A stretch of DNA of 58,029 nt from the NCBI GenBank assembly GCA_022729755.1, contig DZAZ01000004.1:1-58029 (forward strand). The letters run 5' to 3'. Below are positions 7,126 through 20,927 of this stretch, piece by piece. The notes under the pieces are model-generated. The model had not been told where the DNA came from. It saw only the letters and a program-made list of their open reading frames with translations, and did not search any database. The stretch is from Helicobacter cetorum. GTDB taxonomy: Bacteria > Campylobacterota > Campylobacteria > Campylobacterales > BB28. Position numbers and translations under genes: made by a program. Numbering within the stretch: the first letter of the stretch is position 1; each line of letters starts with the position of its first letter.

Positions 7126-8132
7126 TTCAATAATAAATTTACTATCTCTTTTGCACCATTTGATGAAATTTCACTCTTTAATTTTTGGCTTATTTGACTT
7201 AAATCTTTATCTAATAATTCAAATATAAACTCTTCTTTTAACTCATCTTCAGTTTTTAAAAAACACAATCCTTTATCAGCTAAAAATTTAGCATTGTGAT
7301 ATTGATGATTTTTTGCCGCATAAGGATATGGTACAAATAAAGTTGGAACTTGATTTGCTACTAGTTCCCATAAAGTCGATGCTCCTGCTCTTGAAATTGC
7401 AAAGTCGGCTTCAGCTATTTTTTCTATTAAATTTTTATGAAAATTAAAAACATCAGCAACAATTTCCATTTTTTCATACTCTTTTTGTACTCTTAAAAAA
7501 TCATTGTCTCCCGTTTGATGAATGATTTTTATTCCCATTTTTGCTAAATCAGAAGCGATATAAAGTGCAAAAGAGTTGATGCTTCTAGCACCTTGACTTC
7601 CACCTAAAAAAATAATTGTTTTAATCTTTTTTCGTTCTCTTGCATTTTGAAAAAAATGCTCATCAATTGGATAATCTTTCACCTTTGAATTAAAATAAGA
7701 TGAAATAAACTCTTTTGCAAATGGTTTTAAAAACTTATTTGATTTTCCTATAATTGCATTTTGTTCGTGAATAAAAAGTTCTTTTCGTGAAAAAATACAA
7801 GCAAAACTAGCAGGTGCAGAAGAGTAACCACCAACACTAAAAACTTTTAAAATTTTCTCTTTTTTAAAAATTTTTTTCACATCTTTTGAAGCTTTATAAA
7901 TTTTAATTAAAGATTTTATCTTGCCTAAAAATCCCTGATTTACAACCCCTTTTGTATCAAAAAAATATTTTTGACTAAAACCTTCATCATTTTCAAACCA
8001 AGCCCTATCTTGTCCATAAGTTGAACCTATAAAAATAGGTTTTATTCCTCTTTTATTTAGTTCAGTTTTGATTGATTTTGCAATTTTCAAATGCCCACCA
8101 GTTCCACCGCCAGTAATTACTATATTACTCAT
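7122..8132 (-). CDS. murG: Lipid II GlcNAc transferase MurG
   Basis: TGGGTGGH, GGYSS, HEQN, GGSQGA, SRAGAST and HQYHNA motifs. Confidence 0.97.
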   Translation of the reverse strand: MSNIVITGGGTGGHLKIAKSIKTELNKRGIKPIFIGSTYGQDRAWFENDEGFSQKYFFDTKGVVNQGFLGKIKSLIKIYKASKDVKKIFKKEKILKVFSVGGYSSAPASFACIFSRKELFIHEQNAIIGKSNKFLKPFAKEFISSYFNSKVKDYPIDEHFFQNARERKKIKTIIFLGGSQGARSINSFALYIASDLAKMGIKIIHQTGDNDFLRVQKEYEKMEIVADVFNFHKNLIEKIAEADFAISRAGASTLWELVANQVPTLFVPYPYAAKNHQYHNAKFLADKGLCFLKTEDELKEEFIFELLDKDLSQISQKLKSEISSNGAKEIVNLLLN

Positions 8133-8145
8133 AAAATTCCCTTTT

Positions 8146-11100
8146 TTACCAATCTATTCTTCTTTTTGTAATTGCTGATGGGTCTACATTTTCATTTACT
8201 CCAGTTCCTGTTGGTGAAGAAGCATCTTCTCTAAAAGTCACGCTAAATTGCGGTTCGTTTGGAATGCCATAACTATTAAACCACAAATATTGTGGAGTTG
8301 TCGAAATTTCAAAATTAGCTTTCTCGATTGATGAACTTCCATCTTTTGTAATTGTTATATTAAATATACCATTGCTAATATTTGGGCTTGTATTGCTAAT
8401 GCCTGATGATGTATTTATGTTCGATATATTGCTAATTTCTGTAAAAGTATCTTGTGTATTTAAATACCAATAAACATAAATATCGTTTTCATTACCTCTT
8501 AAATTTGGAACAAAATCATTACAACCTCTACAATAAACTTCAGCTTTTATATCTACTGGTTGACTACTACCTGTCGTTTCATAATCACCTGCCCAAACTC
8601 TGCCGTAGTAAAAAGTTGCATTATTTTCAATTAAAGTTAATGGAGTTGTAGATATAAGACTATTATATGTTGTTTCAGCATTAACCATATCACTATTCAA
8701 AGTAACATTTATTGGTTGCTCTATTTTTAAATTAACAGGATTTAATGGTATTGTTGAGTCTCTTTTAACATTAAATATTATTGTTTTATTTGATTCTCCA
8801 CTATTAAAAATAAAATCATTTACAAAAATATTTGTAAAACTATTTGCATCGCCACTTAAATCATTATTTGCTATTGAATTTAATATAGTGTTATAAATAA
8901 AGTTTGTAGATAAACCTTCTGCTGTAAAAGTTAATGGAATATTTACACTTCTATAAAAAATATCAGTATCAAAATTTTTAACTGTAACTCCTTGCATATT
9001 TTTAGCAGTTACATTAAAGTCAAATTGAATATTTATATTTTCACTTAATTCAGCCATATAAGTCCAATTTTGCTCACTAAATGGATAAATAAAATCACTT
9101 GATATATTAAAATCATAAGGATAAACACTAATATCATCATTCGCACTTGTAATTAAATCAAGCCCACCACAACTATCACTTGTTATATCAATACAAGCAA
9201 AAGGACAACCATCTAAAGTATAGCAATTTTCAACATTACAAGCAGTGCAATTTGTAGGATTATTTTCATAAGCTCCATCTCCATCGGTGATATTTATATC
9301 AAAAGCTCCAACTTCACTTAAATTTGCTTCAACTAATTTTACACCATTTTCAAATTGCAAATTTCCTTTGTTAGCATAATTAAAAATCCCTTTATTTGTT
9401 GTGTTTTCTACATTGTAGTCTATTTTAAATGAAGACGGAAATGTTTCGTTCTCATCATAATTATTTGTTGAAGTTATGTCTGTTAATGCTTTTAAATCCA
9501 TAGTGAAATTTTCACCAGCTCTGATTGTGTCTGGAATTTCTAAACTAAACTTCTCTGGTCTTACTGCAAATGGGTCTGAAAAATCTGTTCCTGTAACATC
9601 GTTTCCATCAATATCTTTTATCGCTGTTGCGCCGTCGAATATTTGCCAATCTATCTTATATTTTAAAAATCTATAAGCTTTATTGATAGATAAATTTTTA
9701 CTAGTTAAGTCTAAATTTCTTACATCTTCATCTAAGCTTATATTTTCCAAATTTAAATCATTTGGAGTTTTGATAACATTTCCATTAAAATCTATAAGCG
9801 ATATATTTAGCTTATAAGTTAAATTTGAGTCAAAAATATGCTCATCTATTGGAGCGATAAAATGTTTCAAAGTTGCAGGTGCTACTTTTGTCGTTAAATT
9901 TGTATCACTTTTTTGAGTATTGTATTTATTTGCATCCTCCCAAACACTAAAGAGTGGATTTTTATTGTAAAACTTTAATTTATCATTTACCAACTCTATA
10001 ATCTCAAAATTTTCAAATTGAAAATCACCATAAATCGTAGAAATTGTAAAATCAACTTTTACATTAGATATAACGGGCTCTTCAGTTGTAAAAGATGATT
10101 TAGTTGTTAATTTGTATGTAAAGTCTTGGTTAGGATTTATGTTTGATAAAAATTTGCTTTTAGCTATATCAATATCAAATGATGAAGCCACATCAAAAGT
10201 GATATTTATATCTTTACTCACATCAGATAATATATCTATCTCGATATTTACCTCATCGTTTATGGAAACATATTTTTTATCTTCATTCTCTTTTGAATTA
10301 CCAATTATATTTGCATAATATGCAAGTGGAACAACAACCCTCGTCTGAAGTGCAACCAAACTTAAATAGTAGTCATTATCAACTTCTTTGTAAGTCATAC
10401 TATTATTAGTTATAGTAGTTTTACTTCCTAAATAATCACTAGAACTAGGAATACGATTTAACAAACTATTTTTAAAAGTTGTATTTGTCTTATTCCCATC
10501 TGTTGCAAACTCATAAAGTGTTGAATTTCCATCATAAGTTGTAAGTCCTCCATAATTAAAGTTAATATTTGTGTCCTTACTTGAATTTACCTCTTTAAAT
10601 CCCTCATTTATCTCAATCGCATTCATATAATTTAAACTATCTTTTTTATAAACAACAAAAAGCGACCAATAACTCTTATCAGCTTCCATAACACTTGGAA
10701 TATTTGAAATACTCAAACTTCCATTTGCTAAAGTCGTGACATTTACATTTATTTGATAATTTAAATCATATCCACCGTTAGCATTTTCAACTTGAGAATA
10801 ACTTAAATTACAATCACCATTTCCACTAAAATTACAATTAAAATTAGTTGAATTGATAGTTAGTTTTTCAATACTTCTTATAGCTTTTGTATCTGCATCT
10901 CTTATAAAACCATTATAAATAAAAGTAGCATATGCAATTCCATTTCCAGTTTGAAAACTTCCACTTGAAACTTGGTCAAAACTTCCACTTATAAAATCAC
11001 TCTCACCCTCTATTATGATAGTTGTGTTTTTCTCAAAGTTTTTATCATCTCTTTGTGAAAATGGATTTTTTACTGTGAGTATTTGTGTGTTATTATCGCT

Positions 11101-14100
11101 ACTGTCGTAATCTTTTACATCTGAAGATACAAAAACACTTGAATTAAAGTTTTTAAAATCGTACGGAGTTGTAAATTTAAACTCTAAAGTTTCAGTAATA
11201 TTCATTTTTTCAACATCAGCCAATTTACAAACCAATTGAGATGAGGTGATATCACAATCACTAATATCTAAACCTAAACTATTTGCTGAAATACTCAAAG
11301 TTGAAATATCAAAATTACTTTCTAAATTCAAAGTCAAAATCGTATTTTTTGCAATATCTGGTCCATTGTTTTTAAAATTAAGACTAAAAATAATCTCTTT
11401 TTCAAAATCTGATACAACAAAACCACTTGAAATAGTTTTAGTATAATTTTTATGGTCAGTTGCAGTTACTTTAAAATCACTAATTTCTAAATCAGCCATA
11501 TCATCGATATTAATCTTAAAATTTTTGCTATTATCGTTTGGATTTTCATCAACATTTTCACTTTTTATAACTATATTTTCATTGATAATCGGAGTTGAAT
11601 TTGTCGGAGTTATCACTTCAAAACTAAGATTATGCTCACCAATTGCTAAATCTCCACTATAACTACACTCAACAATTCCACTATTTGGAGTGTTCCAATC
11701 ACAACTCCAACCACTACTTACATTTGTAAAACCAGTAAAATTAGAGTCAAGCGGAATTGTAACTTTTGGATTTTTTGCGGGAGAATAACCACTATTGTTA
11801 AAATCTATCGCAAACTTAATGGTTTTACCAATATTATCTTTTATCTCTAACTCATTTGGAGCGACTACACTAGTAGTATTATTCATATCAGTTAATCTAA
11901 TCTGAACTAATTTCAAATCAGCAAAACCAACTTTTATAGTTTGATTAGTTTCGCTAACTGGGTCTGAATTTGAAGCATCTCCAACCAAACTTATATTATA
12001 TTCAGCCGAAGTATCTGGAGCTTTCAATTTTATACTCACATTTCGCTCACTATTAGCCGATAAATTGCCATCTTTACAATTTAGAGTGTTATTATATTTT
12101 GCACAACTCCAATTTATGCCATCGTCAGCAATAAAGTTATAATTAAATCCGTCCAAAAACTTATCTAAATCACTACTGATAGTAATATTAACTTCAAGAT
12201 TTTTTGCTTCTGCTGAAGAATTGTTTTTGATTGTTACATTGTAATCAAAAGGTTTGTTTAAATCCACATACTTTGGAAATGATGAGTTTATGTCTAAAGT
12301 TGAAGTTCCACCGCCTATATTTATAGTGTCTTTTTCGTCCACTTTTTCGGCATTATTAGCACTTACATTTATATCTATTCCAACATCTCCACTTTGGTTT
12401 GGAGCTGTTAAAGGAATTTCTAAGCTTTTTGTATTGCCTGAATTTAAATCGCCATCACTACAATTTAATGAATTATTTGCATAAGTACAACTCCAATCGC
12501 CTAAAGTGTGTGGATTTCCATCGCCTAAACTACCAAGCATTGAAACATCATCTATTGTTAAATTAAGTTCAAGATTTTCTGCATTTGCATTACCATTATT
12601 TTTTATTGAAATAGTATAATTAAAATTATCACCTATACTTATAGTTGATGGATTTGTGGAAGTTGTAATATCTAATACTGCAATGTCTTTGACGATAATT
12701 CTTTGAGGTTGACCTTTTCCCAATGTTTGGGTATCTAATTCACTTTTTGCAACAACTACACTATTAAAATCTTCATCGCTGTTTGGCGAAGTAACAATAA
12801 CTTTTAATGTTGAATAGTTTCCATCTTTATTAATATTTCCACTTAAGGTACAAGTTAGATAATCTGTAATATTTGTTGTTGGCGAACAAGTCCAACTATT
12901 ACTAGAAGTCACACTTTTAAACTTAAATCCATTTACAAAATTTATAGCAATTTTTGGATTTGTTTCATTAAAATTAGACATATTTGTAAGATTTATATCA
13001 AAAATTACATCATTAGCATAACCAACTCTTACAACTTCATCACTACTTTTTGGAGTTACAATCGTGTCAATTTTAAATTTTGATACAAAAATTGTTGGAT
13101 GAGTTATTCCCGTATCAAGACACTTCGGTACGATATTATTAAAATTCATTTTCAAAGTATCACTCACATAATTTACAATGTAAGTATTATTAATTTCTCC
13201 ATTTACTGGATAAGCTATAATGTCAGAATTATATAAATAAGCATCTTGTTGATTTACTAAAATTTGCCCACCATTATTTGCATTAGCACCAGTTCCTACT
13301 CTAACTTTTAATGTATAAAGACTGTCTATATAATCAACCTCATCATCGCCACTTCCATTTGTTTTTTGTTGATTATTTATATAAGTTCCAAAAGCTTTAT
13401 TATAAGCAAGTGGGGCATCAAAACTTTTTTCTATTTGTACTTTTTGTGCAGGTTCAGTTCCGATATTTGATACATTTACTTCAAAAACTAATCTATCACC
13501 CAAAAATACACTAGTATTTTCATCTATAATTGCACCATTTTTATACACATTTTCAAGATAACAAACTTTTGGAGAATAAAGCTCTGTTGCGAATGCAACC
13601 ATTCCAGGATAATATTGGTCACCAGAAGTTTCAAGTCTGATTGTTGTTGATGTTTGAGAATTTGTAATAATACTATTTCCAACATCAAAAACATCAATAT
13701 CAATACCCATATTGTTACTTAAAGTTGGATTTCGCAGGGAACTATTTCTAATTGAAGAATCAAAAACATTATCAATATTTGTAGAATCTACATTTTGAAA
13801 ATCACCATTTTTATCAGTAAGCTGGAATTTATCATCTTTATATGGTAAATCTCCCTCACCTGCAAATATAAAAAGTTGTGAATTAACATTCCCACTTGCT
13901 GGAGTTAAAAAGCCTGAAATATCTATATCAACTCTTCGATAATTATTACTGTCCTGAATATTTTTATAACCCACAAATACAGATGTATTTTTAAAACTAT
14001 CTTGTAAATCTTCATATACAACAGTTAATGCCCAAGCACCGTAATAATTTTTTGTATCATTATCTACAAATAAATCTGCAATTGTATAAGTTCCACTCCC

Positions 14101-16311
14101 TTGCACTAAATTTGTAATATTTTTATAACATTGATAAGAATTTCCATTATAATTACATCCTCCACCAATTAAAGCATCAATTTCTGTATAACTTGAAGAT
14201 GATGGAGATTTGAATTTTAATTTACTTATATTAACTCTTTCTTCTACACACACACTTTTCCATTTTGTACAAACTCCATTTTTATATTTTGTACACTGTT
14301 GTTCTGTTCTTACACACTCTTTAATATTAGTTGTTCTACCTTGCCAATTTAAAATTGCAAATTTTACTTTTGCATCAGGTCTTAACTCTAAATCTGCATT
14401 ACTTGAATTAAATGTTGAACTATCTCCATCTATATCTACATATTTAGCAAATACATCATTATTTGCTTTTGTAGAACTAGGAACACAATTTCCATTACTA
14501 TCTTTTTCGCATAAAACTGTATTTCCTATTAATTTTATACCCCCATATAAATTTGTTCTATAAGCTAACTCAAAATCTTTATAATTAGTATCTAAACCTG
14601 AACTATCTTGATTTACACTAATATACATAGTGCCACTTATACTTCCGTGTCCATCACTTACACTAAAAGTAAAACTATCATCATCATCATTGCTATAAGT
14701 GTGCATATACTCTAAATTTCCACTGTCAATATCTTCTTGTGTAAAAGTTTGAGCTGATGAGGTAATATCTATTGTGCCATTTAAGATTAAATTCCCCTTT
14801 GTTGGAAGTGAAGTAATACTATAAGTTAATTGACTAGCACTCTGTTCATTATCAGTTACACTTAAATTTAAATCTTGAATAGTTACTCTATCATTTTGAT
14901 TAATAGTCAATTGATTGTAAATTACTTTAGGAAGAGAGTTAATTTTAATGCTTAAATTTGATGAAATAATATTTACACCATCAGTTAAATTAAAATTAAA
15001 ACTACTGATATTGATACTTCCATTATTTTCAAAACTAACTCTTTTGTTATTTATATCATCTTGTGTAAAAGTTGCATTAATTGAGAGATTTACATCATTT
15101 AATTTGACAGAACCATTATTTGCCAAAGATTTTAAAGTGTAAATCAATTGTGCTGGATACTCCTCCACATCATTTGCAGGTAAATTTAAATATATAATAT
15201 CAACTTCAGAGTATTGATTTAAAGAAAGCTCAATTGGAGTTATAGTTGGTGCATCATTAACGGGATTTATTGTTATGTTCATAAAAGTTTCTAATGTATA
15301 CAAACTTCCATCATTGACAGTATATTTAAAACTATCACTTAATGGGCTTTCACTTCCATCGTGTATATAAGTTATTTTAGCGTCGTTTATGTCTTGTTGA
15401 GTAAATGTGTTATTTATTGCCAAAGCTACACCGTTTTTATATAAAACACCATTTGTTGGAATTAACAACAAAACATAACTTATTTCACTTGCACTCTGTT
15501 CATCATCAATTGTATTTAAATGAGTATTTTTAATCGTTGTCGTAGAATTCTCATCAACTGTAATCGAGCTTAATTGAACTGTTGGGGGAGTGTTATTATT
15601 CCAAACTCCTCTACTTGTATTACACGGATTATTGTTAAATGCCGTTAGCCAACAGTTATTAACATCACTACAAGTACTACCATCCTCTACACCATTTATA
15701 TGATTTCCAAAAGAACCATCAGGATATGCACAAAGTCCATTGTTATTTGCTGCATTTTGTTCTACATTTGTAGTGCATTGTGGAATAGTTGTTTTAGACC
15801 AATACCATTTGTCTTCTGTTTGTTCATTATTATTCCAATATCTAAGATAGTGAATTATTGTTGAAGTGCTTTTTATTCTAAGTAAAAATTCTCCGCCAAC
15901 TTGAGCAAATTGTAGATTACTATCTTTTGTTCGATACATTGCTTCAGTTAAAACTAAAAATGTTCTATCTGGCACAACACCATTTGGATACTTGGTTTTT
16001 ACTTGGTCGCCTGATGTTGCTCCAGCATTCACATAAGCCTCTGTTAAATCTATACAAGCAGGAGTTCCATTTGCTGCTGTATCTATATAACATAATTCCC
16101 AATTGTTTACATCCAAATTTCCACCAGAAACATTTAGAAGTTCAATGTAATTATTTGCATAATCATTTCCACTATCTTTCCATAACTGATTTAAATCCAT
16201 TTTAGGATTTTGCTCTGCAGTATTTTCACAAGTTCCAGCATCATTCCCACCAGCAACTCCCAAACTCACAAAAACCATCAACCCCAAAATAACACGAATA
16301 AAATTTTTCAT
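8146..16311 (-). CDS. Giant (2721 aa) secreted adhesin-like protein: lamin-tail-like domain, 3 cadherin/CSPG repeats, DUF3344-like domain, several DUF11-like Ig repeats, MshQ/DUF6701-like C-terminus
   Basis: Sec signal peptide; NYIELLNVSGGNLDVNNWEL; three TFTQxDIxxxxxxY/F repeats; repeated YTISIKNNGxxxAxN and W(S/T)C...C motifs; DPFAVRPEKF and YYGRVW near the C-terminus, ending RRIDW. Domain names from recall, not from a search. Confidence 0.75.
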   Translation of the reverse strand: MKNFIRVILGLMVFVSLGVAGGNDAGTCENTAEQNPKMDLNQLWKDSGNDYANNYIELLNVSGGNLDVNNWELCYIDTAANGTPACIDLTEAYVNAGATSGDQVKTKYPNGVVPDRTFLVLTEAMYRTKDSNLQFAQVGGEFLLRIKSTSTIIHYLRYWNNNEQTEDKWYWSKTTIPQCTTNVEQNAANNNGLCAYPDGSFGNHINGVEDGSTCSDVNNCWLTAFNNNPCNTSRGVWNNNTPPTVQLSSITVDENSTTTIKNTHLNTIDDEQSASEISYVLLLIPTNGVLYKNGVALAINNTFTQQDINDAKITYIHDGSESPLSDSFKYTVNDGSLYTLETFMNITINPVNDAPTITPIELSLNQYSEVDIIYLNLPANDVEEYPAQLIYTLKSLANNGSVKLNDVNLSINATFTQDDINNKRVSFENNGSINISSFNFNLTDGVNIISSNLSIKINSLPKVIYNQLTINQNDRVTIQDLNLSVTDNEQSASQLTYSITSLPTKGNLILNGTIDITSSAQTFTQEDIDSGNLEYMHTYSNDDDDSFTFSVSDGHGSISGTMYISVNQDSSGLDTNYKDFELAYRTNLYGGIKLIGNTVLCEKDSNGNCVPSSTKANNDVFAKYVDIDGDSSTFNSSNADLELRPDAKVKFAILNWQGRTTNIKECVRTEQQCTKYKNGVCTKWKSVCVEERVNISKLKFKSPSSSSYTEIDALIGGGCNYNGNSYQCYKNITNLVQGSGTYTIADLFVDNDTKNYYGAWALTVVYEDLQDSFKNTSVFVGYKNIQDSNNYRRVDIDISGFLTPASGNVNSQLFIFAGEGDLPYKDDKFQLTDKNGDFQNVDSTNIDNVFDSSIRNSSLRNPTLSNNMGIDIDVFDVGNSIITNSQTSTTIRLETSGDQYYPGMVAFATELYSPKVCYLENVYKNGAIIDENTSVFLGDRLVFEVNVSNIGTEPAQKVQIEKSFDAPLAYNKAFGTYINNQQKTNGSGDDEVDYIDSLYTLKVRVGTGANANNGGQILVNQQDAYLYNSDIIAYPVNGEINNTYIVNYVSDTLKMNFNNIVPKCLDTGITHPTIFVSKFKIDTIVTPKSSDEVVRVGYANDVIFDINLTNMSNFNETNPKIAINFVNGFKFKSVTSSNSWTCSPTTNITDYLTCTLSGNINKDGNYSTLKVIVTSPNSDEDFNSVVVAKSELDTQTLGKGQPQRIIVKDIAVLDITTSTNPSTISIGDNFNYTISIKNNGNANAENLELNLTIDDVSMLGSLGDGNPHTLGDWSCTYANNSLNCSDGDLNSGNTKSLEIPLTAPNQSGDVGIDINVSANNAEKVDEKDTINIGGGTSTLDINSSFPKYVDLNKPFDYNVTIKNNSSAEAKNLEVNITISSDLDKFLDGFNYNFIADDGINWSCAKYNNTLNCKDGNLSANSERNVSIKLKAPDTSAEYNISLVGDASNSDPVSETNQTIKVGFADLKLVQIRLTDMNNTTSVVAPNELEIKDNIGKTIKFAIDFNNSGYSPAKNPKVTIPLDSNFTGFTNVSSGWSCDWNTPNSGIVECSYSGDLAIGEHNLSFEVITPTNSTPIINENIVIKSENVDENPNDNSKNFKINIDDMADLEISDFKVTATDHKNYTKTISSGFVVSDFEKEIIFSLNFKNNGPDIAKNTILTLNLESNFDISTLSISANSLGLDISDCDITSSQLVCKLADVEKMNITETLEFKFTTPYDFKNFNSSVFVSSDVKDYDSSDNNTQILTVKNPFSQRDDKNFEKNTTIIIEGESDFISGSFDQVSSGSFQTGNGIAYATFIYNGFIRDADTKAIRSIEKLTINSTNFNCNFSGNGDCNLSYSQVENANGGYDLNYQINVNVTTLANGSLSISNIPSVMEADKSYWSLFVVYKKDSLNYMNAIEINEGFKEVNSSKDTNINFNYGGLTTYDGNSTLYEFATDGNKTNTTFKNSLLNRIPSSSDYLGSKTTITNNSMTYKEVDNDYYLSLVALQTRVVVPLAYYANIIGNSKENEDKKYVSINDEVNIEIDILSDVSKDINITFDVASSFDIDIAKSKFLSNINPNQDFTYKLTTKSSFTTEEPVISNVKVDFTISTIYGDFQFENFEIIELVNDKLKFYNKNPLFSVWEDANKYNTQKSDTNLTTKVAPATLKHFIAPIDEHIFDSNLTYKLNISLIDFNGNVIKTPNDLNLENISLDEDVRNLDLTSKNLSINKAYRFLKYKIDWQIFDGATAIKDIDGNDVTGTDFSDPFAVRPEKFSLEIPDTIRAGENFTMDLKALTDITSTNNYDENETFPSSFKIDYNVENTTNKGIFNYANKGNLQFENGVKLVEANLSEVGAFDINITDGDGAYENNPTNCTACNVENCYTLDGCPFACIDITSDSCGGLDLITSANDDISVYPYDFNISSDFIYPFSEQNWTYMAELSENINIQFDFNVTAKNMQGVTVKNFDTDIFYRSVNIPLTFTAEGLSTNFIYNTILNSIANNDLSGDANSFTNIFVNDFIFNSGESNKTIIFNVKRDSTIPLNPVNLKIEQPINVTLNSDMVNAETTYNSLISTTPLTLIENNATFYYGRVWAGDYETTGSSQPVDIKAEVYCRGCNDFVPNLRGNENDIYVYWYLNTQDTFTEISNISNINTSSGISNTSPNISNGIFNITITKDGSSSIEKANFEISTTPQYLWFNSYGIPNEPQFSVTFREDASSPTGTGVNENVDPSAITKRRIDW

Positions 16312-16322
16312 AACTCATCCTT
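16262..16322 (-). repeat. Junction repeat copy D (RBS/stop plus signal-peptide start of the giant gene)
   Basis: AAGGATGA GTT ATGAAAAATTTTATTCGTGTTATTTTGGGGTTGATGGTTTTTGTGAGTTT. Confidence 0.95.
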
Positions 16323-16800
16323 GATAATTAAAATGATGATTTTTTGCTATATCTCTAACTTTTTCATCAACTTTAGCTAAATCATCTATTATAGAAAACA
16401 CCATATCTAAAGCTTTTTTATCAGCTTTTAGCACTAATTTTTCCTCTACAATTTTTTCAAATTCATCTCTTGAATCTTTTATAACCTTTTTTCTATCATA
16501 AATAGAGTAACCAATTAATCCAAAAATCGCAGCTAAAAGTGCAAACATCAACGATTGCATAAATTCAAATCTTTTATTGACATCATCAAATCTTTTATCC
16601 ATATACTTTTGCATATCTTCAAATCTTTTGTCAGTATGTTTTTGGATATCTTCAAATCGTTTATTTGTAGCTTCTTGATTTGATTTTATCAACTCTATCA
16701 AAACTTTAATATCTGCCTTTGTAGCACCTTTTTCATCTTCTGCAAAGCTTAAACTCACAAACAACATAACCCCAAAAATAACACGAATAAAATTTTTCAT
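16315..16800 (-). CDS. Signal peptide + KRFE-repeat coiled coil + TM protein (DUF1640/CCDC90-like), paralog 2
   Basis: ATKADI motif, KRFEDxQKxxD repeats, TM segment, C-terminal helical tail ending YQG. Confidence 0.75.
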   Translation of the reverse strand: MKNFIRVIFGVMLFVSLSFAEDEKGATKADIKVLIELIKSNQEATNKRFEDIQKHTDKRFEDMQKYMDKRFDDVNKRFEFMQSLMFALLAAIFGLIGYSIYDRKKVIKDSRDEFEKIVEEKLVLKADKKALDMVFSIIDDLAKVDEKVRDIAKNHHFNYQG

Positions 16801-16811
16801 TGTTTAGCCTT
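16751..16811 (-). repeat. Junction repeat copy C
   Basis: AAGGCTAA ACA ATGAAAAATTTTATTCGTGTTATTTTTGGGGTTATGTTGTTTGTGAGTTT. Confidence 0.95.
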
Positions 16812-17283
16812 GATAACTTAAATTATGTTTTTTTAACATCTCTTGAACATCTTTATTATTTTTTGCTAATCGCTCAATAATTTCAATCAATTTTTCAACT
16901 ATTTTCTTATCGGCTTTTTGCTTTAGTGAATTATCAATCCTCTCTACTTCAACTTTTAAATCTTTTGCCATAATATCCACAACTTTTCTATCTTTTATAA
17001 GATATGCTATTGCAGCCAAGATTATTGTAGTTATAAAGCTTAAAAATATGAAAATAGTATCAAATCTTTTATCCATATATTTTTGCATATCTTCAAATCG
17101 CTTATCGACCTGCTCAAACCTTTTGTCCATATTTTTTTGCATATCTTCAAATCGCTTATTCATAGTCTCTTGATTTAGTTTAATTAACTCTACTATCATT
17201 CTAAGCTCACTTTTTTGCTCATCGGCAAACCCTAAACTCACAAACAACATAACCCCCAAAATAACACGAATAAAATTTTTCAT
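16804..17283 (-). CDS. Signal peptide + KRFE-repeat coiled coil + TM protein, paralog 1
   Basis: KRFEDMQKNMDKRFEQVDKRFEDMQKYMDKRFD, TM segment, KADKK...LAK...HNLSYQG tail homologous to 16315..16800. Confidence 0.75.
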   Translation of the reverse strand: MKNFIRVILGVMLFVSLGFADEQKSELRMIVELIKLNQETMNKRFEDMQKNMDKRFEQVDKRFEDMQKYMDKRFDTIFIFLSFITTIILAAIAYLIKDRKVVDIMAKDLKVEVERIDNSLKQKADKKIVEKLIEIIERLAKNNKDVQEMLKKHNLSYQG

Positions 17284-17294
17284 TGGTTAGCCTT
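17234..17294 (-). repeat. Junction repeat copy B
   Basis: AAGGCTAA CCA ATGAAAAATTTTATTCGTGTTATTTTGGGGGTTATGTTGTTTGTGAGTTT. Confidence 0.95.
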
Positions 17295-17520
17295 TTTTTG
17301 AATATAAATATTCTGGGTCAAAATCTGCACCGTTTTCCCACTCTATAGTATTATGAGATATTATAAAATTTTTAAACTTCTCTTTATCTTTCAATGGCTC
17401 AAAAATCTCACCATAAAGCTCATTCTCTAGATTTATGATTTTTTCAACCCCATTATTAAATAATATTTTTAAATTGTAATCACCTATGTGTTGGGCTTTT
17501 ATTATATGTAAAAACATCAT
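17287..17520 (-). CDS. DUF2442 family protein (partner gene of a putative toxin-antitoxin pair)
   Basis: LKILFNNG...GEIFEPLKD...TIEWENGADFDPEYLY pattern; directly follows the DUF4160 gene. Confidence 0.85.
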   Translation of the reverse strand: MMFLHIIKAQHIGDYNLKILFNNGVEKIINLENELYGEIFEPLKDKEKFKNFIISHNTIEWENGADFDPEYLYSKKG

Positions 17521-17787
17521 TTACTCTTTATCAAGAGGTGTAATTTTTTTTAGAGGTTTATGGGCAATGGCTAATTCCCAATTTTCCATCAACTCCTCTT
17601 TATGTCTTTCATACCACTCTAGCACAAGTGCTTTTGCTCTTGGATTCATTTTGCCTTTTATTAAACCAGTTTGTATATCTACACTTATCTCTTCATCCTG
17701 ATATATCGCATGGAAATGAGGCGGATTATGTTCATTTCGATAATTAAATACGATATGAATATTAAAAAATTGACTTATCTCAGGCAT
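17521..17787 (-). CDS. DUF4160 family protein (putative toxin-antitoxin pair)
   Basis: MPEISQFFNI...EHNPPHFHAIY...LVLEW...ELMENW...KKITPL; start reassigned to ATG 17787 behind GGAGGTG. Confidence 0.88.
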   Translation of the reverse strand: MPEISQFFNIHIVFNYRNEHNPPHFHAIYQDEEISVDIQTGLIKGKMNPRAKALVLEWYERHKEELMENWELAIAHKPLKKITPLDKE

Positions 17788-17842
17788 TATACACCTCCAT
17801 CCATAACATAACCCCAAAAATAACTCTAATAATAGTTTTCAT
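17780..17842 (-). other. Vestigial signal-peptide mini-ORF containing junction repeat copy A (17805-17853)
   Basis: AAGGCTAA AAA ATGAAAACTATTATTAGAGTTATTTTTGGGGTTATGTT... translates MKTIIRVIFGVMLWMEVYNA*; its stop overlaps the DUF4160 start (ATGCCTGA). Confidence 0.8.
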
Positions 17843-17845
17843 TTT

Positions 17846-19114
17846 TTAGCCTTCTTTAAATTTATTTGTATATTTCCCTTTTTGCAATATATACTCTTTA
17901 AATTCATCTTCAAATTTTTCTAAAAATCCGCTAATAACATCAGCAACAGCAACTCCAAAGACACAAATAGTTTTTCCATTCATAATAAAAGCGATATCTT
18001 TTAATATTTTTAAATCATCTAAAGTTGCATTACCTTCATAAATTTTATTTACAATTTTACTAGCCCAAGCACTTCCCTCGCGACAAGGTGTGCATTGTCC
18101 ACAAGACTCTTCGTGATAAAATTCAAGTAAATTTTTTAGAGTTTTAACCATACAAGTACTCTCATCTAAAACAATCATTCCACCAGTGCCTAGCGATGAA
18201 CCAGCCTTTTGAAGTGACTCATAATCTAGTGTTAAATTTTCTATCTCATTTGCTTTTAATATTTTCGTTGAAGAGCCTCCAGGTATGATGGCTTTTAATT
18301 TTTTATTTTTCCAGACACCTCCACCAATCTCTTCAATATATCGTTTCATAGCAAATCCAAAAGGTACCTCTTTCACACAAGGATTATTGATGTGTCCACT
18401 TATTGCAAATAGCAAAGTTCCAGCACTCTCATTTGTACCAATGCTTTTATAAGCATTAAAGCCGTTATTAATGATAAATGGTACAGTCGAAATTGTCTCA
18501 ACATTATTAACTATCGCATCTTCACCAAAAAGATAATCAGCTTCAGGCTTTTTTGGCTTAACTCGTGGGTGTCCGCGATTTCCCTCAATTGACTCTAAAA
18601 GTGCCGATTTTTCGCCACAAATATAAGCTCCAGCTCCACGATGAATTACTACATCTAAATCAAAGTTAGAATTTTTGATGTTTTTGCCCAAAAAACCATA
18701 TTGATATGCTTCATCGATTGCATTTTGAAGTGTTTTTGCTTGAGTTGTGTATTCACCTCTTATATAAATATAACTTTTATTTGCACCAATTGCATAAGCT
18801 GAAACTATAACTCCCTCTATTAATAGATGTGGGTCTTTTTCCAAAATTTGCCTATCTTTGCAAGTTCCTGGTTCGCTCTCATCTGAATTGACACAAAGAT
18901 AAACTTTTTTATTTTTATTGAGTAATTTCCACTTTTTACCAGTAAAACCTCCACCTCCACCTTTTCCACGAAGTCCACTTAAATCAATCTCTTGTACAAT
19001 TTCGCTTGGCTCTTTTGAAAAAGCTACTTCAAGGCTAGAATAAGCACCGTTTTGAAGTGCAACTTCGATTTTATAATTATCGTTTATTTCAAAATTTTTA
19101 CTAACTATTTGCAT
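17846..19114 (-). CDS. nuoF: NADH-binding FMN/4Fe-4S subunit NuoF (orphan)
   Basis: SGLRGKGGGG, NSDESEPGTCKDR, YIYIRGEY, GAGAYICGEKSALLESIEG, ESCGQCTPCREG and TIC motifs. Confidence 0.9.
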   Translation of the reverse strand: MQIVSKNFEINDNYKIEVALQNGAYSSLEVAFSKEPSEIVQEIDLSGLRGKGGGGGFTGKKWKLLNKNKKVYLCVNSDESEPGTCKDRQILEKDPHLLIEGVIVSAYAIGANKSYIYIRGEYTTQAKTLQNAIDEAYQYGFLGKNIKNSNFDLDVVIHRGAGAYICGEKSALLESIEGNRGHPRVKPKKPEADYLFGEDAIVNNVETISTVPFIINNGFNAYKSIGTNESAGTLLFAISGHINNPCVKEVPFGFAMKRYIEEIGGGVWKNKKLKAIIPGGSSTKILKANEIENLTLDYESLQKAGSSLGTGGMIVLDESTCMVKTLKNLLEFYHEESCGQCTPCREGSAWASKIVNKIYEGNATLDDLKILKDIAFIMNGKTICVFGVAVADVISGFLEKFEDEFKEYILQKGKYTNKFKEG

Positions 19115-19126
19115 TTTAACTCACTT

Positions 19127-20353
19127 TTAAAGCACAATTGTAAATTTTGCACCCTTTTGTTGATTTGGATATTCGATATTCTGTACATAAATTTCTCCAT
19201 TTAATTTCTCATTTACTATGATTTTACCGATAGCAAGTCCTATTCCCGTACCATTTTTACCTTTAGTTGAAATATAAGGTTCAAATATTTTATCCATAAT
19301 TTCCACTTTTATTCCTCCACCATTGTCGCAAATTTCAATGACTATTTTTTCATTATTTTGATGTACATTTACTTTAATAAAACCATCTTCTATTTTATGC
19401 TCTATTATCGCATCTTTTGCATTGTTTAAAATGTTTAATATCACCTGTTTAAACTCATTTGGATAACTAACTATTTCAATTTCACTCTCAATTAATTCAA
19501 AATTAATATTTCTGTTGTTGAATTGAGAATCGATTATTTTATAACTATTTTTTATTTCATTTATAATATTGAATTTTATTTTTTCTTTATCAGGTTTAAA
19601 AAAATTTCTAAAATCATCAATCGTATGAGACATAAATTCAATTTGTCTTTTAGATTTTTTAACCATTTCATCTATCTCTTGTTCATTTAACATACCTCTT
19701 TTATATCTTATTTGAAGTCCTTGAATAATCAAAGAGAGTGCATTTAATGGTTGTCGCCATTGATGAGCAATTGCCCCAATCATTTCGCCCATTGCAGCCA
19801 TTTTACTTTGTTGGATTAATAATTGTTCTTGTGCTTCTTTTTCTTTTTGGAGTTTTAATCTACTTTGCAACTCTATTTCAACTTGATTTGTTAATTTATC
19901 ATTAAATTCTCTTAAATTTTTTTCAAGCTCTTTTTGTGCAGTTATATCCCTAATTGCTGTTACTCTTAGAGATTGATTATTTTGTTTTACCATTTTTGCA
20001 CTAACTTCCATTGGAAAAACATCCCCATTTTTTTTAACACCATAAACCTCATATCTACCCTCTATACCTTTTGTAATATTATTTAAAACTATATCTCTAT
20101 GTTCATTAACAATTAACTCTAATCCCGATTTATTTATTAATTCACTCTTTTCGTATTCAAAAATTTCACTTGCAGCTTTATTTGTATCTAAGATAATTCC
20201 ATCTTTTGATATAAAAATTCCTTCAAACGAAACATCTGAAAGCATTTTAAATCTATTTTCAGCCTCTTTTCGTCTTTTTATCTCTCTTGATAAAATTCTA
20301 TTCCAATATAAAATTACAAGTATTAAAATAAATAAAATAATTAATGTTTTCAT
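19127..20353 (-). CDS. PAS-domain sensor histidine kinase with one N-terminal TM
   Basis: PAS domain, GEMIGAIAHQWRQPL H-box, NAKDA N-box, DNGGG, GTGIGL; start likely ATG 20353. Confidence 0.9.
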   Translation of the reverse strand: MKTLIILFILILVILYWNRILSREIKRRKEAENRFKMLSDVSFEGIFISKDGIILDTNKAASEIFEYEKSELINKSGLELIVNEHRDIVLNNITKGIEGRYEVYGVKKNGDVFPMEVSAKMVKQNNQSLRVTAIRDITAQKELEKNLREFNDKLTNQVEIELQSRLKLQKEKEAQEQLLIQQSKMAAMGEMIGAIAHQWRQPLNALSLIIQGLQIRYKRGMLNEQEIDEMVKKSKRQIEFMSHTIDDFRNFFKPDKEKIKFNIINEIKNSYKIIDSQFNNRNINFELIESEIEIVSYPNEFKQVILNILNNAKDAIIEHKIEDGFIKVNVHQNNEKIVIEICDNGGGIKVEIMDKIFEPYISTKGKNGTGIGLAIGKIIVNEKLNGEIYVQNIEYPNQQKGAKFTIVL

Positions 20354-20360
20354 ATAAACC

Positions 20361-20927
20361 TTATAATTTTGCAAGTTGAAGTATTTTACAACTATTTTCG
20401 ATAATTGACATTTTTTTCGCTAATTGATTGATATCTCTGTCATAAATATAAATTCCATAACCTTTAATTATCATAACTGAAGTTTTATTCTCTTTGAAAT
20501 ACCTCACAATTTCAATATGAGCTCTCTCATACCAATCATCAAAATTTTTTGGGTCATAAATTTTCAAATTTCCAAAATGTTTGTATCCAAAATAATCTTT
20601 TGGAATTATTTTATTATGAATAAGTGAATAAGCTATCGTAGAAGGCGACATTCCATAAGCTATATACTTTGCTTCGTGGATATTTTTATAAATATTAAAG
20701 TGAATTTCAGCATCAATACTAGCCTCTTTCCAACGATAATCTTTATTAAAATAAAGCTCAATTAAAGAATCGCAATCCATTTCATCAAAAATTGCATTTC
20801 TTTTATTTATGATAAATTTATTATTTTCTATTTTTGCTGAAACTGAACCGTGAAAAATTCCAAAGAAGCCCGTTCTAAACATTGATAAACTTATTTTTTC
20901 TAACTCTTTAACTATAAATTTATCCAT
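20361..20927 (-). CDS. Class II aldolase/adducin-domain protein
   Basis: FFGIFHGSVSAK, YRWKEASIDAEIH and IYDPKNFDDWYERA, a conserved Campylobacterota family. Confidence 0.85.
   Translation of the reverse strand: MDKFIVKELEKISLSMFRTGFFGIFHGSVSAKIENNKFIINKRNAIFDEMDCDSLIELYFNKDYRWKEASIDAEIHFNIYKNIHEAKYIAYGMSPSTIAYSLIHNKIIPKDYFGYKHFGNLKIYDPKNFDDWYERAHIEIVRYFKENKTSVMIIKGYGIYIYDRDINQLAKKMSIIENSCKILQLAKL

Follow-up and report, generated by a model that had tools for sequence, protein, structure and literature searches.

The question raised by this locus is how one and the same gene start came to stand four times, in direct orientation, ahead of the gene for a giant surface protein. The window is the whole stretch of DNA analysed, 58,029 nucleotides (nt) long; it is contig C37 (DZAZ01000004.1) of a metagenome bin of Helicobacter cetorum (GCA_022729755.1, here G000) with 132 contigs, 2,115,555 bases and 88% completeness. 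On its minus strand a NuoF-like flavoprotein gene (nuoF), a toxin-antitoxin (TA) pair, two small genes (here parB and parC) and the giant gene form a string in which all neighbours are 0–3 nt apart or overlap, and copies A to D of the repeated start stand behind nuoF and at the heads of parB, parC and the giant gene. An earlier reading of the letters alone (the original prediction) had taken the TA pair, parB and parC as cargo inserted serially at the 5' end of the giant gene, whose start would have been duplicated each time. The locus is explained best, with a probability of roughly 60%, by two ordinary processes: a signal peptide shared by parB, parC and the giant gene that evolved in concert, and insertion of the TA pair with long target duplication. 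A genome of the same order (G001) and proteins from metagenomes (P-numbers) were used for comparison.

The four direct copies were found on the minus strand with ATGs at 17842 (A), 17283 (B), 16800 (C) and 16311 (D), at the predicted spacings of 559, 483 and 489 nt. Copy A (17805..17857) comprises a ribosome site, the nuoF stop, the ATG and 13 signal-peptide codons; copy B (17233..17294) is the start of parB (16804..17283; 159 amino acids, aa), copy C (16750..16811) the start of parC (16315..16800; 161 aa), and copy D (16253..16322) consists of AAGGATGA, 3 nt, the ATG and the signal-peptide codons of the giant gene (8146..16311; 2721 aa; cadherin-like, DUF11 and CARDB repeats by Pfam). The single difference between B and C in the first 51 coding nt and the identity of B and D over the first 30 coding nt were confirmed. 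When the copies were searched against the whole genome with blastn-short, B and C were 96.8% identical over 62 nt (E 9e-25), B and D 92% over 50 nt (88–92% across 50–59 nt overall), C and D 90% over 50 nt, A and C 89.8% over 49 nt (E 7e-10) and A and B 85.7% over 49 nt (85–86% over a range of 49–53 nt). A 26-nt core occurs exactly three times (none expected from 100 shuffles), and the whole-genome search that had been proposed found it absent elsewhere in the 2,115,555 bases at up to 3 mismatches. Copy A departs from this core at 4 positions and heads only a 20-codon stump open reading frame (ORF; 17780..17842), made of MKTIIRVIFGVML and 7 foreign codons; its likeness ends at +38 (counted from the A of the ATG), where foreign sequence begins, and at +27 it has T like C and unlike B. 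The left edge of all four units lies near −11, and unrelated sequence precedes each of them.

Collapsed repeats or chimeric joins might give such a layout in a metagenome bin of 132 contigs that is 88% complete, and an assembly artefact had been named beforehand as a concern. The four-copy layout was kept in re-assembled contigs: all four junctions were reproduced with 0 differences in Logan contigs of three runs (two samples), one 6611-base contig of run X1 spanned 15300–19300 with 0 differences, and in runs X2 and X3 the same stretch was present in two pieces, broken inside parB (at about 17100) and not at a repeat. As X1 and X2 are possible source samples, their independence is weak, and the agreement excludes a single-assembler error rather than giving independent support. 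The units are also not identical to one another, they enclose distinct gene bodies, and an artefact was given next to no chance; the fourfold gene start is real. Deletion or amplification variants at the repeats were not found in the Logan contigs, which drop rare variants; listed contig joints (sides of 21–38 nt, mostly high-depth foreign contigs) were left uncounted in this check.

The stretch of the repeat that precedes the ATG was considered separately. As the original prediction had noted, the upstream genes end in KEG, KKG, YQG and YQG, each with its stop exactly 3 nt before the next ATG; the observation stood, its reading as a special design did not. The motif AAGGNT(stop)NNNATG between two ORFs of at least 60 codons occurs at 8 places genome-wide, 3 of them at this locus, and of the genome's 43 junctions spaced by 3 nt, 8 have Gly-stop at the upstream end. 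Junction A's 14-mer is found again, unchanged, at C125:30703 and inside a DUF4160/DUF2442 pair on contig C45, and in other organisms the C-termini of the small-gene family read YQG, YQS or FKG. The arrangement is a generic design of G000 that couples ribosome site, stop and start, and the Gly-stop pattern appears because the ribosome site AAGG sits 7–8 nt before the ATG. The non-coding part of the repeat is therefore weak evidence for duplication, and strong evidence comes from the coding part.

Whether parB and parC were inserted here was judged from their family. The parB product has a signal peptide, a DKRFE-repeat coiled coil, one membrane helix and a helical tail ending in YQG, and shares 49% aa identity with that of parC; in the Atlas, parB fell into unnamed clusters only. 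In a tree of 13 family members, from which the first 20 residues were left out, parB joined the G001 protein on contig C101 with 100/99 support and parC was not its sister; since parB pairs with its G001 ortholog, the small genes predate the split of G000 and G001. They are ancient paralogs, neither recent cargo nor recent duplicates, and no cargo junction is marked by copies B, C and D. The peptide type itself, M(x)KN-I-L-R-V-x-F, is found at the start of the parC relatives P0003, P0004 and P0005 (60–67% identical), of the parB relative P0065 (59%) and of the member P0006/P0064. Contigs of equal size gave P0003 and P0006 (1265 bases) and P0005 and P0065 (5632 bases), a hint that the small genes may be neighbours in the relatives too.

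The giant gene has few relatives. Its N-domain was present in 2/401 genomes of the order, G000 and G001, and the G001 giant (54% identity over the first 500 aa) was the sole ortholog found; it carries the same peptide type and is the only G001 match to a degenerate pattern of it (n = 1). The metagenome protein P0156 (2299 aa) is 32% identical to the giant protein and its peptide shares 11/20 residues with copy D. As the giants of G001 and of another metagenome carry the type, the sharing is old and the peptides have been kept alike within the genome. A word-index search with the first 300 residues of the giant protein returned only the self match, and among 555 pattern matches from metagenome contigs none was confirmed by alignment to its N-terminus.

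Within G000 the numbers of identical residues among the first 20 were 18 (B/C), 17 (B/D) and 15 (C/D). Comparisons with the same protein type in other organisms gave 6/20 for B against P0065, 7–8/20 for C against P0003, P0004 and P0005, and 8/20 for D against the G001 giant, and the different protein types P0065 and P0003 to P0005 shared 12–14/20. The metagenome protein P0010, from another sample, is 96% identical to parB and has 5 differences in the first 19 residues against 2 in the other 140. In B and C, identical residues use the same codon in 15/16 cases within the first 20 codons and in 40/64 beyond, with CGT, GGG, TTG and GTG among the codons held in common. At the DNA level, B and C are 93% identical over the first 60 nt against 45–87% elsewhere, and past +51 this value drops to about 65% in the space of 50 nt. 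Signal peptides that group by genome and not by protein indicate concerted evolution, as judged from these comparisons, with conversion as the probable homogenising step. An idea that parB lost an unrelated native peptide to one derived from the giant gene was dropped: relatives carry the type natively, and the groupings are by genome. The Pfam model for the extended signal peptide region (ESPR) of type V secreted proteins gave no match at E up to 10 with 5 N-terminal peptides.

These data bear directly on the model of the original prediction, in which the giant gene received the TA pair, parB and parC one after another at its 5' end. The common left edge near −11 behind unrelated sequence is what serial insertion would leave, insertions with long target duplication are frequent in G000 (see below), and fusion of cargo to a duplicated target is recorded for methylase genes in the available part of PMC2853133. 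The G001 giant gene also has the peptide type, and the G001 ortholog of parB sits elsewhere, after hydrogenase-like genes; yet this ortholog resembles a 5'-shortened version (6/16 residues in common with P0065), and the small-gene family has the peptide type in other organisms in both paralog types (P0065, P0003 to P0005, P0064). Cargo at the other loci brings its own start, whereas the small genes would have had to arrive startless and in frame, and the paralogs predate the separation of G000 and G001. The model was considered distinctly unlikely as a whole; insertion with duplication of a start is supported for the TA pair, between A and B, and not for parB and parC. In G001 the small-gene family is present as single genes at at least 5 unrelated places, wedged between housekeeping genes. 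A decayed copy with several stops was also seen at G001:C86:19163-19434 (L046, about 7160–7440), between genes for 298 and 727 aa.

The TA pair lies between copies A and B. The toxin gene (17521..17787; 88 aa) matches Pfam DUF4160 (7.8e-19, 68.1 bits) and the antitoxin gene (17287..17520; 77 aa) DUF2442 (3.3e-12, 46.9 bits), above the gathering scores of 23 and 23.9. Matches to NCBIfam toxin_DhiT (2.7e-16, 59.9 bits) and antoxin_DhiA (2.6e-5, 24.7 bits) are below the equivalog cut-offs of 100 and 200; by these scores the pair is a putative member of the DhiT/DhiA family and not an equivalog, and its toxicity is predicted. The TAA of the toxin gene abuts the antitoxin ATG directly. Only 17 nt, which include a GGAGG site 5 nt before the toxin ATG, separate the end of copy A from the toxin gene, the TGA of the stump ORF lies 4 nt beyond the toxin ATG, and copy B begins at the antitoxin's last codons, behind the DUF2442 stop. 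The pair looks like cargo inserted, without a promoter region of its own, in the 5' end of a host gene. That host is the first small gene, parB, and not the giant gene as had been proposed. A second DUF4160/DUF2442 pair was noticed at C45:3946-4449 (locus L040), its DUF4160 frame with an in-frame stop; no flanking repeat of at least 18 nt was found around it.

Other duplicated gene starts or ends that flank TA or defence cargo, a scan for which had been suggested, were collected by self-BLAST of the genome with typing of the cargo families, and at least 4 more loci with repeats of 38–81 nt were obtained. At C98:4964-5570 (L036) a 56/56-nt identical repeat, which equals −3..+53 of a gene for a 619-aa DNA methylase, encloses a 74-aa gene and a YoeB toxin gene in front of the methylase gene; the upstream copy is a 20-codon stump (17 codons from the host) whose TGA overlaps the cargo ATG. 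At C109:18602-21797 (L035) the start of a 155-aa gene, which we take to encode a bactofilin, is repeated (72 nt, 94%) around genes for GmrSD_N, an AAA_15/DUF3696 ATPase and a Gp49-like protein, and the upstream copy also holds, in another frame, the 3' end of the preceding 301-aa gene. The stump design of copy A is thus present at both C98 and C109. At C132:15449-17562 (L034) a 51-nt repeat (94%), spanning the boundary between two genes (presumably tlyA and ribF), flanks an AAA_15 ATPase gene and a 189-aa partner. Here an empty site was found: in 8/13 relatives' loci the ribF-like gene lies within −31 to +59 nt of the tlyA-like gene, the remaining 5/13 having no ribF within the stretch fetched. 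At C94:56-5075 (L037) a 38-nt repeat of the 3' end of a gene for a 976-aa MmeI-like protein encloses a ParE-like gene that follows it, and the 5' start of the MmeI-like gene has a second copy of 81 nt, found 4.9 kb further downstream close to where the contig ends. The best explanation for these loci is that at least 4 further addiction or defence modules were inserted in G000 by the same process. A run of N was seen in C94 at about 255–460. Local direct repeats of 35–182 nt (90–99%) around small genes, some of them TA-like, were seen as further candidates at C90:1685-2281, C106:33692-36132 and C5:251-13416.

Taken together, the following course of events is proposed. The genes parB, parC and the giant gene would have formed a tightly coupled string with signal peptides homologous from the outset, of a type native to the small-gene family that also heads giant proteins in other organisms. 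The first 30–62 coding nt and the ribosome-site junction would then have been re-homogenised, likely by short-patch conversion or template switching, through exchange between direct repeats about 490 bp apart; with their starts made alike, the three genes would share one translation start and one export signal. A promoterless, ORF-tight DhiT/DhiA-type pair would have entered parB at about +38, where about 50 nt of target were duplicated, the upstream copy (A) becoming the 20-codon stump and the downstream copy (B) rebuilding the host gene. As the stump ends on the toxin start, translation could run on into the toxin gene. No element-encoded recombinase would take part. In agreement with the original prediction, no recombinase or transposase families were detected in the 18 flanking and internal ORFs scanned (window 3.7–25 kb). 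The string from nuoF to the giant gene would probably be read as one transcript. Recombination between copies had been predicted to remove cassettes; by reasoning this holds for the TA pair between A and B, a deletion that addiction to the toxin would disfavour.

That the pair was inserted at this very place rests on analogy with the parallel loci, because no empty nuoF/parB site was found, and duplication of the target here is offered on that footing as the probable origin of A and B. Directly behind nuoF (17846..19114; 422 aa; Pfam Complex1_51K, NADH_4Fe-4S and SLBB_2) comes a NuoG-like gene in G001 and in 24 of the 37 relatives' loci that leave 400 nt or more of room; 10 of the other loci were without a NuoG-like gene, 3 had it at 119–2242 nt, and three further loci had no room. 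In G000, nuoG is on another contig (C6:14891-16228), beside a divergent 806-aa gene. NuoF relatives, at 56–61% identity, come from bins named as Sulfurimonadaceae, Sulfurovum, Sulfurimonas and other Campylobacterales, and the last approximately 9 codons of NuoF (…KYTNKFKEG-stop, window 17846-17880) are unmatched in relatives. Since nuoG follows nuoF in most relatives, the position of nuoF next to the array is a derived state, and the empty site is not to be had from any relative. A degenerate pattern of the unit matched 0 stretches in metagenome contigs, a pattern that would miss P0010 (K at residue 3), and no empty sites were found in G001, where the small-gene loci, the ribF gene and the bactofilin gene are all differently neighboured. 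As a separate observation, a Sulfurimonas bin (L080:4255-6413) has two genes (290 and 429 aa) between nuoF and nuoG, with no flanking direct repeat of at least 18 nt at >70% identity.

Several points weigh against the two-process explanation. A nuoF/parB junction free of the insert was not encountered: synteny with G001 is absent here, and two metagenome scans were blank. Copies A and B are 85.7% alike, compared with 94–100% at the parallel loci, and in copy A CGT has become AGA in two steps with Arg retained, a pattern to be expected if A formerly belonged to a gene under selection. No instance of conversion was recorded, and selective pressure from a genome-specific partner would account equally for the likeness within the genome. 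The contrast along B and C is moderate, with a second peak of 85–87% in the DKRFE motif, and the neighbourhood of the relatives' small genes rests on equal contig sizes only. Finally, a 4346-base contig of another population (runs X1–X3), of higher depth than the G000 organism, matches only −11..+30 of copy C (window 16771-16811; 38/41 nt, flanks <85%), which conversion within one genome does not explain; the unit may be held or exchanged beyond one genome.

Some of these points lend themselves to other explanations. Copy A might be the start of a lost third signal-peptide gene whose body was replaced by the TA pair, and substitution next to repeats is, in the available part of PMC2853133, a recognised class. 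This would account for A being the most diverged copy, for the retained Arg of the CGT-to-AGA change and for the T at +27 common to A and C and absent from B. But between A and B no body or 3' remnant of a small gene was found beyond AAGGCTAA, a generic junction, and stump, cargo and rebuilt start together equal the arrangement at C98 and C109, where the copies are 94–100% alike. In addition, P0010 has F at residue 9, as does copy A, and A therefore fits an older state of parB. Substitution was regarded as unlikely. The 41-nt match of the other-population contig, with flanks below 85%, would also be expected if the −11..+30 unit were kept by selection on the nucleic acid, as the site of a regulator or small RNA, and not by recombination; identical synonymous sites and rare codons in common point the same way. 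This explanation was held to be very doubtful: folding of the four copies gave z-scores of −0.33, 0.74, −0.05 and −0.10, which give no sign of a stable or common fold, the unit varies from lineage to lineage, and it stands on no other gene of G000.

The two-process explanation also connects the locus to described systems. The founding paper for insertion with long target duplication is reportedly that of Nobusato et al. from 2000 (Gene 259:99). In Campylobacter fetus sap and Mycoplasma vsp/vlp, neighbouring surface genes have a near-identical start and signal-peptide region and differing bodies, and as at this locus the genes of one genome resemble each other more than their orthologs elsewhere. 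The present case departs from them in having only direct copies, a separate start for every gene, no single expression site or invertase, and a giant gene that is not a paralog of its partners. An integron cassette array is similar in its promoterless, ORF-tight units in one orientation behind a common upstream gene, but differs in that no integrase was detected among the ORFs scanned and no attC-type folded site is present, the repeat being a coding 5' end. The original prediction had known no named system with this design, which has a name: insertion with long target duplication, defined by repeats >30 bp around an insert <20 kb without a mobility gene (Furuta, Abe and Kobayashi 2010, PMC2853133, as far as available). 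According to the same part of that source, such insertions are seen in bacteria that are mostly competent, Helicobacter and Campylobacter among them; amplification through the repeats and the fusion of genes at the target copy are mentioned, and the mechanism is called unknown. The A/B repeat exceeds the 30-bp criterion, and the insert of about 0.5 kb has no mobility gene; the screen in that paper also asked for restriction-modification cargo, a criterion of the screen and not of the mechanism, and the cargo here is DUF4160 with DUF2442. Common to both are a short insert between landing-site repeats without transposase or integrase, an epsilon-proteobacterial lineage, addiction-module cargo, a rebuilt host gene and repeats that permit loss or amplification. 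The differences from the cases in the available part of PMC2853133 are that TA and ATPase-defence cargo is carried here instead of restriction-modification genes, and that the target is 5' coding sequence with a stump ORF ending on the cargo start. In the titles and abstracts of the 7 papers available that pair 'long target duplication' with 'toxin-antitoxin', classical TA cargo was not described. For dhiTA of Dickeya dadantii, the available part of PMC8198452 reports toxicity and its neutralisation, with DUF4160 first, DUF2442 second and a 3-nt overlap. The G000 pair is like it in having the toxin first and tightly joined, abutting instead of overlapping by 3 nt, and unlike it in scoring below the equivalog cut-offs and in having only 17 nt before the toxin start.

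If the explanation holds, several sibling cases in one genome would show TA and defence modules entering operons with long target duplication, a process previously described for restriction-modification genes and unsolved in its mechanism. The stump ORF that ends on the cargo start suggests how promoterless cargo is translated, and a signal peptide that acts as a unit kept alike across unrelated neighbouring genes would bear on the spread of export signals. The finding does not reveal a new cassette system, and nothing in it requires one. A wider idea, a recombinase-free mode of gene gain in which ORF-tight modules are slotted into gene starts or ends, a short leader ORF feeds ribosomes to the cargo and the −11..+50 unit of start and export signal ahead of the giant gene serves as a preferred, reusable site of landing and exchange, was thought improbable; if true, duplications of 38–81 nt would rebuild the host, and stacked small envelope genes and TA genes could be lost or amplified.

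Counts of promoter-like sites (87; shuffles 88.6) and of terminator-like sites (4; shuffles 3.0) were uninformative. A histidine kinase gene (19127-20374, minus strand) was annotated beyond nuoF, and a minus-strand gene with both glycosyltransferase family 28 domains, presumably murG, adjoins the giant gene.

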